Source: an uncultured Candidatus Binatia bacterium (lineage in GTDB: Bacteria > Desulfobacterota > Binatia > Bin18). From it: a stretch of 64,000 nt of DNA. The position numbers and the translations under genes were made by a program. Positions 45,405-50,520 of the stretch are shown here, one piece after another; the stretch's first letter is position 1, and each line of letters begins with the position of its first letter. The notes beneath the pieces are model-generated. The model ran no database searches. It saw only the letters and a list, made by a program, of their open reading frames with translations, and was not told where the DNA came from. The stretch covers positions 3,417,222 to 3,481,221 of the forward strand of contig OZ241744.1 in NCBI GenBank assembly GCA_965200965.1. The letters run 5' to 3'.

Positions 45405-46172
45405 ATGATCTTCCTCAAGTCGCCACACGAAATCGCACTCATGCGCAAAGCCAACCGGATCGTGAGCGAGGTCCTGGCGGAGTTACGGGAAGAGGTGCGG
45501 CCCGGCGTCTCCACAGGCGACCTCGATCGCCGGGCCGCGGAGTTGATTCGGAAAAAGGGGGTGCGGTCCGCCTTCAAAGGCTATACCATGCGGAACGGAG
45601 CCGTGCCGTTTCCGGCCACGATCTGCGTGTCGATAAACGACGAGGTGGTGCATGGGATTCCGCAGAACACCCGGATCATCCACGACGGCGACTTGGTGAG
45701 TCTTGACTTTGGCGTCATCTTTGAGGAGTTTTATGGGGACGCTGCTATCTCCTTCGTGCTTGGCTCCGGCCAGGAGCGGGTCCACAAACTCCTGACCACA
45801 ACGGCCGAGTCGCTTGAAGCAGGCATCGCCCAGGCCCAGGTCGGCAACCGGCTCGGCGATGTGTCAGCCGCAATCCAGGAGCGCGTTGAACGGGCGGACT
45901 TTTCCATTGTGCGTGAGTTTGTCGGCCACGGTGTAGGGCGACGCCTGCATGAGGACCCTGCCGTGCCCAACTATGGCCCAAGAAATCGCGGGGTTCGTCT
46001 CCGCGAGGGCATGGTTCTGGCCATTGAACCTATGGTCACGATGGGACGGGCGGAGGTTACGATGAAAGACGACGGCTGGACTGCGGTGACACAAGACGGC
46101 AGCTTGTCGGCTCATGTTGAGCACTCGATTGCAATTACCGAGCGTGGGCCACAGGTCCTGAGCCAACTCTAA
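45405..46172 (+). CDS. map: Type I methionine aminopeptidase
   Basis: Motifs read: KSPHEIALMRKANRIV, GDLVSLDFG, GHGVGRRLHE, and EHSIAIT. Confidence 0.94.
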   Translation: MIFLKSPHEIALMRKANRIVSEVLAELREEVRPGVSTGDLDRRAAELIRKKGVRSAFKGYTMRNGAVPFPATICVSINDEVVHGIPQNTRIIHDGDLVSLDFGVIFEEFYGDAAISFVLGSGQERVHKLLTTTAESLEAGIAQAQVGNRLGDVSAAIQERVERADFSIVREFVGHGVGRRLHEDPAVPNYGPRNRGVRLREGMVLAIEPMVTMGRAEVTMKDDGWTAVTQDGSLSAHVEHSIAITERGPQVLSQL

Positions 46173-46180
46173 GATCGTCA

Positions 46181-46227
46181 AGGTGAATCATCTTGCCTTC
46201 CTCTCGACCGGCTAAGATGATTCACCT
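46181..46227 (+). other. Perfect 14-bp inverted repeat (aggtgaatcatctt / aagatgattcacct) with a 19-nt loop, between map and rpmJ
   Basis: Read directly. The right arm ends 4 nt before the GGAGGAGG that precedes the rpmJ ATG. There is no U-tract. Confidence 0.6.
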
Positions 46228-46244
46228 GTAGGGAGGAGGCGTGT

Positions 46245-46358
46245 ATGAAGGTTCGGGCCTCAGTCAAAAAGATGTGTCGGAAGTGCAAGCTGATTCGCCG
46301 CTTTGGAAAAGTGCGCGTTATTTGTGAGAATCCGCGCCACAAACAACACCAGGGCTAG
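46245..46358 (+). CDS. rpmJ: 50S ribosomal protein L36
   Basis: 37-aa ORF not in the track (below its size cut-off): [38 protein letters not shown] strong SD precedes it. Confidence 0.93.
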
Positions 46359-46384
46359 CACCGGCGAGGACAGGGAGAAGAACT

Positions 46385-46765
46385 ATGGCACGAGTCGCCG
46401 GGATCGAATTGCCCCGGAATAAGCGGATCGAAATCGGTCTGACCTACATCCACGGAATTGGCCGCAAGACGGCAGCCGACATCCTTGCTGCGGCCAGTGT
46501 CCCACCGGAGCGGAACACCGATGAGTTAAGCGATGATGAGGTCGCCACTATTCGCCGTGTTCTTGAGGAAAGCTATCGGGTTGAGGGCGACCTGCGCCGG
46601 GACGTGACCGGGAATATCAAGCGCTACATTGATATCGGCTCTCACCGGGGCATCCGTCACCGCAAGAACCTGCCGGTCCGAGGCCAGCGGACCAAGACAA
46701 ACTCGCGGACGCGGAAAGGCCCGAAACGTACGGTGGCTGGGAAAAAGCAGGTGCCGGCCCGCTAG
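46385..46765 (+). CDS. rpsM: 30S ribosomal protein S13
   Basis: Starts [26 protein letters not shown]. Also contains [13 protein letters not shown]. Confidence 0.96.
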
Positions 46766-46790
46766 TCCGCAGTTGTAAGGAGAACATGGC

Positions 46791-47189
46791 ATGGCCAGAG
46801 CCGGCGAGCGTGCTTCGACACGCAGGAAACGCATTAAGCGGTCTGTCCCGGAAGGTGTCGTTCACATCTACTCAACCTTCAACAACACCATTGTGACCAT
46901 CACCGACACCCAGGGGAACTCCGTAGCCTGGGCCAGCTCGGGCAGTGTGGGCTTCAAAGGCTCACGCAAAGGCACCCCGTATGCCGCCCAAATGGCGGCT
47001 GAAAGCGCGGCTCGGAAAGCGGCTGATGCCGGGATGCGTTCCGTTCAGGTGCATGTAAAGGGACCAGGGGCGGGGCGGGAATCGGCCCTGCGCTCGCTTC
47101 AAGCCACCGGGTTTGCCGTAAGCGTCATCCGGGATGTCACCCCGATTCCGCATAATGGGTGCCGTCCTCCAAAACAGCGGCGGGTATGA
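46791..47189 (+). CDS. rpsK: 30S ribosomal protein S11
   Basis: Translation reads [20 protein letters not shown]...[14 protein letters not shown]. Confidence 0.96.
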
Positions 47190-47298
47190 GACGGCTGAGG
47201 AAGACAGGCGAGTCACAGGGCACAGGGCAAAACCCATACGGGAGAGAGTGAGCTACCCCTAAGCTCCCCACCGAGGTATACGGAAGCTGGAGGATTTT

Positions 47299-47931
47299 GT
47301 GGCGCGATACAGCGGGCCAGTCTGTCGCCTGTGCAGGCGAGAGGGAATTAAGCTCTTCCTCAAGGGAGAGCGCTGCTATACTGATAAGTGTGCGATAGAA
47401 CGGCGGAGTTATCCGCCGGGACAGCACGGCCAGGGACGGGGGCGGAAGGCAACCGAGTATAGTATCCAGTTGCGCGAGAAGCAAAAGCTCAAACGCATCT
47501 ACGGAGCCCTGGAGAAGCCCTTTCGGCGAATGTTCTCCTTAGCCGAACGCCAACATGGCGTCACTGGAGAGAATCTGCTGTTGCTCTTAGAGCGCCGTCT
47601 TGACAATACGGTGTACCGGATGGGATTTGCGACCTCCCGCTCAGAAGCTAGGCAGCTCGTCCAGCACGGCCACTTTCTGGTCAACAACCGTCGCGTGACC
47701 ATCCCCTCCTACATGGTCGCCGTCGGTGATGAGGTCCAGGTCCGGGAGACCAGTCGCAAAATCACCCGTATCCAGGAAGCGGCCGAGTTGGCCCAACGCC
47801 GCGGCGTGCCAGAATGGCTAGAGGTTGAGAAGGATACATTTGTTGGCAAAATGAAAGCTCTTCCCGAACGAGCCGAGCTCACCGTTCCGGTCAACGAACA
47901 ACTGATTGTTGAGCTCTACTCAAAGGTCTAG
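47299..47931 (+). CDS. rpsD: 30S ribosomal protein S4
   Basis: GTG start after GGAGGA. Translation reads [24 protein letters not shown]...S4 domain [15 protein letters not shown]. Confidence 0.95.
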
Positions 47932-47951
47932 CGTCACGGTGACGGGGTATT

Positions 47952-48164
47952 ATGACATCTCTGACTTTCTTTGTAGCGGCGTCGCTGCTCGCATACTACC
48001 TTCAGTTACTCCTGATCGGTGGTAGACTGTTCATGATGCATCGAGCCGGCCTGCGACGCGATCGGCAACTTGATGTCATGGAGGCCGGGTCGCAGGCACG
48101 GTCTCGCGCTTTGGACGAGCAGACTCAGTTATTGCGCGAGGCGACTCAGTCGCTAGCGGAGTAG
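47952..48164 (+). CDS. Hypothetical 70-aa protein: N-terminal TM helix plus a charged helical tail
   Basis: ORF only, with no family recognised. It reads SLTFFVAASLLAYYLQLLLIGG, then RRDRQLDVMEAGSQARSRALDEQTQLLREATQ. It lies inside the rpsD-rpoA insertion and has a weak RBS. Confidence 0.35.
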   Translation: MTSLTFFVAASLLAYYLQLLLIGGRLFMMHRAGLRRDRQLDVMEAGSQARSRALDEQTQLLREATQSLAE

Positions 48165-48334
48165 AACCGGTCATTGGAGAGCCGGGTGCTGGGAGAGCTA
48201 CTGCGGCGGACGGGATAACTGAAACGGCCGGGTTGTTTGATCAGCCCCGTATGTTAACGCCAAAACGGCGGTTCGGTGCTATTGCCGCCGCATAATCTGT
48301 ATGGGCGACACCACGACAGCGGAGGAACATCTCT

Positions 48335-49006
48335 ATGGCAACACCTGGGAAAATGAGCGTTGAGAAGGGAAGGAAGTTTGAGGACTGGTGCGAGGACCAT
48401 ATCCGCGACGAAGTGTTTCCTAACGAGGACTATTTCAGAATCAAGCGCCAACATCATCCCGGCGGGAATTTGGAGAGGGTGGACTTTCACGTCCAGCTCA
48501 AGAAAAAACCTGGAAACCAAGGTTTGGTCATTGAGTGTAAGAATTATGGGAAATCTTCACTGGAATTGAGAAAGGCGATTCGTCAAGTAAAGGAATATAA
48601 GAAGGCTACTGGGGCAAAGTGGGCGATGATATGGATAAGCAACGAGAGTGTGCCTTCCCCCGAATTTTTGAAGGATGCCAGCGATGCCGGAATTGAAGTT
48701 CATCAAATCGATATGTCTTTTATCCAGAAAGTGCCGATATTGAGGAACTTCAGAAAGAAACACAGGATCCTGAATCGGAATAAGGAGGATGCCACATACA
48801 TCGATCGCATGCACCGCGAATTAGCGGAGTATCTTGCAGAGGAGAACCAATCTAGCATAGCGGAAGCTCTGAATGAGATGGAAATGGAAGTCGAGAGGGA
48901 CTATAGAGCCTTTCTTGAACTCGTCGATATACCGGACGAGATGGGTGTTACGGAGGACTCTGGAGACTTCCTTTCTTCCCCGCATATGCAACCTGAAAGA
49001 GCCACA
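48335..49006 (+). CDS. Mrr-like PD-(D/E)xK (restriction-endonuclease fold) domain plus an acidic linker. There is no stop codon, and it is in frame with rpoA
   Basis: GGAGG at 48321-48325 lies 9 nt before the ATG. Motif order: FEDW helix, ERVDFHV (D), LVIECKNY (ExK), then ...[31 protein letters not shown]. Sampled 60-nt lines give 35-53% GC. The track ORF 48335..50026 runs continuously into alpha. Confidence 0.6.
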
Positions 49007-50026
49007 ATGCAGAAGATTGATCTCATCAAGCCCGAGGAAATCATCGTTGATAAAGAAACCCTGACCGCAACCTATGGTCGCTTTACCGGGGAGCCTTTTG
49101 AGCGCGGGTTTGGCCTAACCCTGGGGAATGCCTTGCGTCGGGTCTTACTCTCCTCGCTGACCGGCGCGGCCATTACCAAGGTGCGCATCAACGGGGTCCT
49201 GCACGAGTTCTCAACCGTGTCCGGCATGACGGAAGATGTCACCGACCTCTTACTAAACCTCAAAGAAATCCGCTTCCGCCTTGAGGACACCGACCAGGAG
49301 ACGATCCGGCTTGACGTGCAAGGCCAAGGGGAGGTCACCGCGGCCGACCTGAAAACCGATGCCCAGGTCGAGATCCTGAATCCTGACAAGCACTTGGCCA
49401 GCCTCGGTAAAGACGCCAGCCTCGAGTTTGAAGCCGTCGTCCAAACCGGCCGGGGATATGTGACTACCGAGCAGCACAAATCTGAGGACGACCCCCTTGG
49501 CACAATTCCGCTGGACGCGGCATTTTCTCCGGTGCGCAGGGTCAATATCACAGTCACCAACGCGCGCGTAGGCCAACGGACCGATTATGAGCGGCTGGCC
49601 CTTGAAGTGTGGACCGACGGCAGCCTGAGACCAGAAAAAGCGGTTGCGGAGGCGGCCCGGATTATTCAAGACCAGTTCAGCGTTTTTGTCGGCCCAAGTG
49701 AGGAACAGGAATGGCGGGCCGAGACCAGGGAAGAGCCGGCTGGGGTCGTGAATGAAAATCTGCTGCGGCCGATTGAAGAATTGAACCTGTCGGTGCGGTC
49801 TGCCAACTGTCTCCAGAGCGCCGACCTGCGCTATGTCGGCGAACTCGTCCAGCGCACCGAGCCAGAGTTGCTCAAGACCAAGAACTTTGGTCGAAAGTCC
49901 CTGAACGAAATCAAGGATACCCTCCAGAACATGGGGCTTGAGTTGGGTCTTCAACTCGGCGATTTTCCTTCGCGCGAAGAGTTGGACCGTAGGCGAGCAG
50001 AATACGAGCCAGAACTCAGTTCCTAG
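49007..50026 (+). CDS. rpoA: DNA-directed RNA polymerase subunit alpha (canonical 339-aa form from the internal ATG)
   Basis: Starts [11 protein letters not shown]. Contains [20 protein letters not shown] and the C-terminal domain motif [14 protein letters not shown]. Length and N-terminus match ordinary alpha subunits. Confidence 0.92.
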
Positions 50027-50060
50027 ATTTCAGGCACTCTGGGACACGAGATACACAGTC

Positions 50061-50438
50061 ATGCGACACCTCAAAACCGGACGAAAACTGAACCGCACCG
50101 CGGCTCATCGTCGAGCGCTGATCCGCAACCTGCTCAAGGCGCTCATCCAGCGTGAGCAAATCCAGACGACCGACGCCAAGGCCAAAGAACTCCGCCGTTG
50201 GGCTGACCGTATTGTCACCTTGGGCAAGCGGAATACCCTGCACGCCCGCCGTCTGGCCTACGCGCAATTAGGCAGCCGGGCCTTAGTCTCGCGTGTATTT
50301 GACGACATTGCCCCCCGTTTTGAAAATCGTGTCGGCGGATATACCCGCATTATCAAGCTTGGCCCTCGACGTGGCGACGCGGCTCCGCTATCCTTAATTG
50401 AGTTCACCGAACGCGAGGCAGAGCCGGCAACCGACTAA
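50061..50438 (+). CDS. rplQ: 50S ribosomal protein L17
   Basis: Translation reads [24 protein letters not shown]. The internal ATG at 50061 was chosen. Confidence 0.95.
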
Positions 50439-50520
50439 AGGTCAGAGCCGAACGGCGGTGTGAGAGGCGAGCCAGCCGTGGGGGCGGGCCCGCCCGAGTG
50501 TTGGAGGAGGGGAGGAGCAG

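Follow-up and report, generated by a model that had tools for sequence, protein, structure and literature searches.

In the 64,000-nucleotide (nt) stretch of an uncultured Candidatus Binatia genome analysed here (the window), the gene for the RNA polymerase alpha subunit, rpoA, is joined in frame to an upstream coding sequence for a predicted restriction-type nuclease, forming a single open reading frame (ORF) of 563 amino acids (aa). The comparisons below show that this in-frame fusion is real and recurrent and that the predicted nuclease looks intact. We hold it to be probable, with a good deal of room for doubt, that the sequence represents a genuine inherited fusion, in which alpha is produced with a nuclease tethered to it, giving each polymerase two, and which would have a conflict-related role, either in defence or as a selfish element. 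We know of no bacterial RNA polymerase core subunit with a catalytic nuclease domain, and full-text literature searches turned up no account of an alpha fused to a nuclease or of cassettes being exchanged at rpoA, in line with the remark in a first-pass annotation of this DNA that an alpha subunit with an N-terminal nuclease was undescribed.

The ORF begins with ATG and runs without an internal stop from 48335 to 50026 of the + strand; its first 224 codons are extra, its last 339 are a complete rpoA, and the other frames across the 672-nt extension are short broken ORFs in the ORF listing. Residues 225-563 match the Pfam families RNA_pol_L (86.8 bits), RNA_pol_A_bac (126.2 bits) and RNA_pol_A_CTD (90.3 bits), all far above the cut-offs, and are 86% identical over 339 aa to unfused Binatia alphas. 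The ORF listing and Pfam thus agree with the original division of the protein into 224 extra residues and a 339-aa alpha from ATG 49007. The fusion gene occupies the place of rpoA in a normal alpha operon, with rpsM, rpsK and rpsD before it and rplQ after it, and no second rpoA was found in the 64-kb window, the only region scanned for one. The G+C content of the 224-codon extension is 0.44-0.49, against 0.57-0.60 in rpsD and rpoA.

The same frame recurs in other assemblies and in other members of the Binatia. The exact 563-aa protein is present in a public protein collection, and its 90% identity cluster holds nine 563-aa variants with 1-5 residue differences; these were assembled from different samples by different assemblers, as ENA scaffolds, Logan run assemblies and two 3.6-Mb contigs. 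When genomes were scanned with alpha, two loci turned up with alphas 86% identical to the window's: L009 has a nuclease-alpha ORF of 510/514 aa, and L012 has no insert and encodes an ordinary alpha of 341 aa that begins 63 nt downstream of rpsD. The homologue search with the 563-aa protein gave further long forms of 559, 582, 510, 467, 528 and 532 aa, and about 113 of the 120 best matches were unfused alphas of 336-359 aa. Fused ORFs stand in the loci L009, L013, L014, L015, L016 and L017 in addition to the window, always in the order rpsD, insert (the cassette), rpoA, rplQ, SPOR, trpD, and in none of the 15 sequenced alleles is there a stop codon between the nuclease and alpha parts. Several of the fused loci lie on contigs of 0.4-6 Mb, those of L009, L014 and L016 being 1.96 to 6.04 Mb long, and the contig names, from which alone this was judged, suggest that the large contigs are long-read assemblies. 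The contigs with fused genes include one of 3.62 Mb from the window organism, CBDBEO010000004.1 (4.12 Mb), ctg6953c (6.04 Mb, possibly circular) and ctg28289 (1.96 Mb). The in-frame fusion proposed at first pass therefore stands, with the same frame in nine assemblies and six other loci.

Two apparent exceptions in the protein collection were rejected. P0009, a 339-aa member of the cluster, was considered as an unfused strain, and its contig merely starts 18 nt before the alpha ATG; P0046 (467 aa), considered as a truncated nuclease, is a late gene call within a 559-codon frame that is open from L017:253. The single match of a metagenome scan with the junction DNA pattern, L020, is unrelated and due to chance. 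A short-read contig of the window species (L001 1-18, Logan SRR18249232) breaks off at the cassette boundary, exactly 18 nt short of the alpha ATG, which may reflect mixed alleles in the sample breaking the assembly graph. The 90% cluster of the 563-aa product (P0005) also contains a 50-aa histidyl-tRNA synthetase-like fragment, evidently a clustering oddity.

The extension carries the ordered hallmarks of the PD-(D/E)xK fold that had been read from the sequence at first pass, together with intact-looking catalytic residues: FEDW at residues 15-18, ERVDFHV with D50 (48482-48484), and LVIECKNY with E67 (48533-48535) and K69 (48539-48541). D50, E67 and K69 are kept in all seven fused loci, in hosts whose alphas are down to 66-70% identical. 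Exhaustive searching with phmmer through 1.84 billion representative proteins recovered 16 stand-alone relatives of 131-228 aa (best E = 1e-13) that align to residues 12-145 of the window extension; neither D50 nor K69 varies, and position 67 has E in every fused form and either D or E among the stand-alone ones. In the profile search that the first-pass annotation had proposed, the window domain itself reached 19.1 of the 21 bits set as the cut-off for the Pfam family Mrr_cat, but 13 of the 17 aligned sequences match the family (best E-value 1.8e-11), and the fused relatives L009 (33.5 bits) and L016 (22.1 bits) lie above its threshold. These results support the extension as an Mrr_cat-type PD-(D/E)xK domain by transitive homology, and hence as a predicted nuclease. 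Direct sequence searches of the PDB gave chance-level matches only, and a word-index homologue search returned nothing with the 224-aa extension and only three proteins with a 22-sequence profile.

An AlphaFold model of residues 1-152 (predicted local distance difference test, pLDDT, 80.7) has the element order H-E-E-E-H-E-H-E of the restriction-endonuclease core, with the catalytic-type residues on the strands 49-55 and 63-69. The top Foldseek matches in the PDB were EcoT38I, PaqCI, the FokI cleavage domain, the Avs4 nuclease, Cdn1/Card1/Can2, MspJI and BamHI, and the viral matches to the nuclease model carry restriction endonuclease annotation. In the full-length model the nuclease domain (pLDDT 84-96) is independent and joined to alpha by a low-confidence linker. 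Helices are predicted there at residues 127-147, 153-169 and 172-195, again at low confidence; residues 196-235 have a pLDDT near 30, with about 196-224 of the linker disordered. The helical linker of about 95 aa described at first pass is accordingly modelled as a helical and then disordered tether, and in the alignment of the cassettes that we call type A below, part of its helical block is common to the others of that type.

The junction itself hints at how the fusion arose. In all fused loci the codons before alpha are CCT GGA AGA nnn ACA or close variants. The corresponding stretch of the window, a relic of the rpoA ribosome-binding site (Table 1), has as its homologues CCTGGAAGAnnnACA-ATG in L009 and the 5' untranslated region of the unfused allele L018, in which CCTGGAAGATACACC is an untranslated leader bearing the rpoA ribosome-binding site; in the fused alleles this leader is translated. 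Because the junction sequence is the untranslated leader of L018, the fusion can be explained as read-through of an upstream stop-less ORF over the old rpoA leader. The comparison of the rpsD-rpoA junction in relatives, which the first-pass annotation had suggested, found fusions at the same site in six loci and the alpha ATG lost in four: where alpha canonically starts, the window, L009 and L016 have ATG, L013 and L014 have ACG, L017 has GCG and L015 has ATA, so that four of the seven fused loci lack the canonical start. That four lineages have lost the normal start codon implies that the fusion is the working alpha. In L015 no in-frame ATG, GTG or TTG with a Shine-Dalgarno (SD)-like sequence occurs within 70 codons upstream of the junction, and its alpha would therefore be makeable only as a fusion.

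The signals for initiation in the window point the same way. The SD sequence that had been noted before ATG 48335 is present, GGAGGA lying 8 nt upstream, and its anti-SD pairing of -9.5 kcal/mol is comparable to that of rpsM, rpsK and rpsD (-8.2 to -9.3 kcal/mol), against -2.1 kcal/mol at ATG 49007. No promoter-like or terminator-like site was found on the + strand inside the insert, and no terminator-like site between rpsD and the fusion start. It is nevertheless possible, if on balance doubtful, that two products are encoded in the window organism as overlapping genes, the long fusion being minor or not made and the working alpha starting at ATG 49007. That codon is retained in all nine strains of the window species, as its counterparts are in L009 and L016, and unfused relatives also manage with a weak SD, such as the GGAAGA of L018 (-4.9 kcal/mol). 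Against this, the SD at 49007 has decayed and is much weaker than the one upstream, all 15 alleles are free of a stop between nuclease and alpha, ribosomes starting at 48335 must run into alpha, the ATG is gone in four related loci, and no internal promoter-like site was found on the + strand.

The comparison of loci indicates that the module for the predicted nuclease is a cassette, hypervariable and subject to horizontal exchange. Between L009 and L013 the DNA of rpsD, of alpha and of the 1.5 kb to either side is 98-99% identical, but the two nuclease domains share only 25% identity; their homology is lost 8 nt past the rpsD stop and picked up again 15-35 nt ahead of alpha codon 1. L012 has flanks that are 94-97% identical to those of L009 and L013, yet the insert is absent. 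The nucleases of the window, L013/L017, L014 and L015 form a group that we call type A, 41-55% identical among themselves, and this grouping cuts across host relationships, the nearest nuclease to that of the window being in L015, whose alpha is 67% identical. In L014 the flanks are 92% identical and the nuclease only 41%. The G+C content of the insert is 0.43-0.48 in every locus, and that of the hosts 0.52-0.61. At the 5' end, L009, L013, L014 and L017 have in common GTGAGGTG, followed by six bases and then ATG, and L015 has ATGAGGTG. Because the nucleases of L009 and L016 have stand-alone proteins, and not fused ones, as their best relatives, at least three lineages of this rare nuclease family have been fused stop-less at this one site (lineages were assigned by best-hit ranking, about 130 aa at 25-45% identity being too little for a tree).

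Substitutions within the cassettes suggest that they are maintained. Between L013 and L017 the N-terminal part has an overall ratio of nonsynonymous to synonymous substitution rates (dN/dS) of 0.31 at a dS of 0.094 (nuclease domain 0.33 at 0.087; linker 0.28 at 0.107), and alpha has a dN/dS of 0.13 at a dS of 0.268. On these values the nuclease part, including the linker, is under purifying selection. The dS of the N-terminal part is lower than that of alpha (Fisher p = 0.0007), and therefore the two loci shared the cassette at a more recent time than they did the host gene. Few substitutions separate the strains of the window species, and most of these are synonymous.

This pattern of presence, absence and type polymorphism at one fixed site of a conserved operon, with low-G+C inserts younger than their flanks, would also be expected of a selfish, homing-endonuclease-like gene targeting the rpsD-rpoA junction, its read-through into alpha being tolerated, its deletion blocked by the decay of the alpha start codon ('addiction by fusion') and its role in transcription nil. 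A precedent is I-Ssp6803I, a PD-(D/E)xK protein of about 150 aa that acts as a homing endonuclease. When the filled site of L009 is compared with the empty site of L012, the replaced segment reaches into the first ~8 codons of rpoA, as it would through co-conversion; the unfused L018 resembles a deletion scar; and the stand-alone relatives of the nuclease adjoin IS1595 and IS3 transposases. We nonetheless rate such an origin as rather unlikely. The catalytic triad and purifying selection are found in all seven fused copies, where decay would be expected after fixation, and neutral tolerance predicts mostly separate genes with stops, not three unrelated lineages that are all in frame and stop-less. 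No terminal repeats or target-site duplications were found at the insert boundaries, no transposase ORF was found in the insert, and a Pfam scan at E up to 10 detected no Hint or intein family. A transposon-type origin of the insert was considered and rejected, there being no terminal repeats. Taken together, three independent stop-less fusions, the intact-looking catalytic residues and purifying selection reaching into the linker argue against pure tolerance, and we favour a polymerase-borne restriction or defence nuclease over a selfish insert.

Several observations at the edges of the cassette deserve mention in their own right. Among the alpha N-termini of P0043-P0161 and of the loci L009-L018, every fused alpha starts with xDLIKP, two residues less than the MQ(D/E)SWRDLIKP that is usual in Binatia, and the short N-terminus occurs also in three unfused proteins, P0049, P0158 and P0161; this suggests either that the first ~8 rpoA codons travel with the cassette or that these three proteins represent scar alleles. 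Upstream of its unfused 342-aa alpha, L018 (2928-3003; L019 is identical) reads GTGAGTGGGT-ATG-GCA, 14 in-frame codons and then CCTGGAAGATACACC-ATG, as though a fused allele had undergone an in-frame deletion that left both cassette ends as a scar; if the upstream ATG is used, this alpha may gain a 16-residue leader. At the loci of two stand-alone relatives, L007 30-764 and L006 5701-6432, the nuclease gene lies about 40 nt after a small gene, for an HTH_3/Xre protein in L007 and for an 86-aa ORF without family in L006, both by an insertion sequence (IS) element, which hints that the cassette may derive from a two-gene mobile module of a controller or antitoxin and a nuclease.

The domain might alternatively be without catalytic activity and serve the polymerase as a structural or DNA-binding module, comparable to the jaw of RPB5. 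Foldseek does match the model to eukaryotic RPB5 chains (probability 0.8-0.98, TM score 0.33-0.43), and the acidic residues E16 and E20 of helix 1 are not conserved among the fused forms. We find this account improbable: D50, E67 and K69 are invariant across hosts with alphas 66-70% identical, and a fixed structural part would not swap between strains or be absent in sister genomes. Least credible of all is an artefact of sequencing or assembly, in which a 1-nt indel would mask a stop such as the TGA at 48994-48996 (present and out of frame, as first annotated, 10 nt before the alpha ATG) in what are really two genes, for even though all data are metagenome assemblies, the idea is refuted by an identical frame in nine independent assemblies from different samples and assemblers, by six diverged loci that differ in linker length (proteins of 510-582 aa) and include contigs of 1.96 to 6.04 Mb, and by junction codons that are conserved as codons.

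Returning to the fusion as an inherited, functional protein, the following course can be envisioned. A stop-less, low-G+C gene for a small Mrr_cat-type nuclease would sit in the rpoA leader, and translation would proceed from the strong SD and ATG 48335 through the nuclease, the tether of about 95 aa and the former rpoA ribosome-binding site into full-length alpha. Because alpha is a dimer, two nucleases would be tethered to each polymerase, one flexibly attached to each alpha N-terminal domain of the core enzyme, and such paired tethers would provide the geometry needed by dimerisation-dependent nucleases of the PD-(D/E)xK fold. N-terminally tagged alpha is functional. At least three nuclease lineages occupy the one site; recombination within rpsD and rpoA, the conserved genes on either side, would swap them between genomes, and they would sometimes be deleted, with purifying selection maintaining the catalytic integrity of the cassettes. 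The restriction-like nuclease would then use the polymerase as a carrier and dimerisation platform against foreign DNA, a conflict-related role being suggested because of the rapid turnover, horizontal exchange and low G+C of the cassette. That the fusion protein is made and assembled into polymerase, and what its nuclease would cut, we infer from comparisons of sequence. Tentatively, one may go further and imagine an armed polymerase that cuts the DNA it engages, maybe when phage factors modify or hijack it; the nuclease would then be a transcription-coupled, strain-variable immune effector housed in an essential enzyme, with cassette exchange at the 5' end of rpoA playing the part of defence islands.

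A number of observations weigh against this functional reading. Unless it is regulated, a nuclease that is constitutively dimerised on all polymerases should be toxic, and no regulator was found. The canonical ATG is kept in the window, L009 and L016, where a normal 37-kDa alpha may be made as well; in L013, L017 and L014 an in-frame GTG follows AAGGAG or AGGAGG 29-32 codons upstream of the junction, inside the helical linker, and could serve as an internal start for an alpha with a 30-residue leader and no nuclease. The window domain remains sub-threshold in Pfam, at 15.8-19.1 bits for Mrr_cat, with further sub-threshold matches to HSDR_N, HSDR_N_2 and PDDEXK_9. As to a defence role, neither the 224-aa extension nor the small upstream ORF matched any PADLOC-DB model at E up to 1, tblastn searches of phage and plasmid collections with one cassette query each found no relatives, and neither did a single-query search of the viral contigs of IMG/VR with the type-A alignment, which in the JGI metagenomes found nothing either. 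All the sequences compared are metagenome assemblies, and the evidence is genomic throughout.

The features of the locus are collected in Table 1.

Table 1. Features of the fusion locus and its flanks, in positions of the window.
Feature	Position	Strand	Basis
rpsD (ribosomal protein S4), upstream conserved flank of the cassette site	47299..47931	+	210-aa ORF; Pfam Ribosomal_S4 and S4 domains in syntenic loci
Small ORF, 70 aa	47952..48164	+	hydrophobic N-terminal helix; coiled-coil-like tail with QT(R/K)xLE-type repeats
Conserved non-coding leader of the fusion gene	48219..48320	+	aligns with L014, partly with L016
SD GGAGGA (48321-48326) and ATG (48335-48337) of the 563-aa fusion	48321..48337	+	GGAGGA 8 nt before ATG; anti-SD pairing -9.5 kcal/mol
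Predicted Mrr_cat-type PD-(D/E)xK nuclease domain, residues ~10-130	48362..48724	+	Pfam, homologues, model, Foldseek
Linker, residues ~127-224	48725..48994	+	full-length model; type-A alignment
rpoA ribosome-binding-site relic GAAAGAG (read as Glu-Arg) and canonical alpha ATG (49007-49009)	48995..49009	+	homology to L009 and L018
Complete RNA polymerase alpha, 339 codons and stop; N-terminal dimerisation/insert domains and C-terminal domain	49007..50026	+	Pfam
rplQ (ribosomal protein L17), downstream flank	50061..50438	+	ORF; syntenic 125-131-aa genes with Pfam Ribosomal_L17 in all related loci

Between rpsD and the fusion, the small ORF is shortened in the window by an in-frame TAG at 48162-48164, with a relic of the old C-terminus extending to 48218. 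Homologues occupy the same place in L015 (3681-3911, 76 aa) and L016 (3627-3902, 91 aa) and end in ...LLRRTG; L014 has a relic only, and the ORF is absent from L009, L013, L017, L012 and L018. It has no Pfam or PADLOC match. It may have been part of the ancestral insert, and could be a decaying ancestral partner of the cassette, e.g. an inhibitor or membrane anchor. The leader that follows contains a hairpin of CGGCGG (48266-48271) with CCGCCG (48285-48290), and Rfam gave no match in 46000-50500, the leader included, and no intron match. On the + strand of the leader neither a promoter nor a terminator was called.

Comparison with known systems sets the fusion apart from each of them. With the Mrr or Type IV catalytic domain (PF04471) it shares the fold and the ordered D...(D/E)xK motif. 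Type IV (Mrr-like) enzymes, however, have a reader domain, and in the 224-aa extension Pfam detected neither Mrr_N nor any other, the only matches being weak ones to nuclease families; alpha is the sole partner, and because it has no reader domain, the fusion protein is not a Type IV restriction enzyme. FokI, Avs4 and Card1/Can2/Cdn1, effector nucleases activated by dimerisation or oligomerisation, likewise link a small, seemingly non-specific PD-(D/E)xK module to a larger protein that controls proximity, but the carriers there are a DNA-recognition domain, a STAND ATPase and a CARF sensor, and here the carrier would be a constitutive dimer that forms a subunit of an essential housekeeping enzyme. 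Like inteins and homing genes, the fusion involves a mobile nuclease at a fixed conserved site, patchy in occurrence, spread through its flanks and leaving apparent deletion scars; unlike them, it has no Hint domain and the nuclease stays in the host protein, unrelated nuclease lineages share the one site, and all copies look catalytically intact and under purifying selection.

Within polymerases, the nearest structural parallel is RPB5 of eukaryotes and archaea, also a polymerase subunit with a PD-(D/E)xK-like fold. The N-terminal jaw domain of RPB5 is ancient, fixed and catalytically inactive. The fusion differs in being on a different subunit, in keeping the catalytic triad, and in being recently acquired and strain-variable. 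Core subunits tolerate larger fusion polypeptides, rpoB and rpoC being fused naturally in Helicobacter; that fusion joins two polymerase subunits, whereas the one at rpoA adds a foreign enzymatic domain.

If the fusion is the working alpha, these bacteria would transcribe with a polymerase bearing two DNA-cutting domains. This would raise the questions of how self-DNA is spared, whether the trigger is foreign DNA or an attack on the polymerase, and whether the polymerase serves as a tracking device for restriction. Whatever the function, the 5' end of an essential gene here appears to be a cassette site exchanged by recombination, an unusual hypervariability within the most conserved operon of the genome, and the locus would provide a natural example of a gene made undeletable through fusion to an essential partner.

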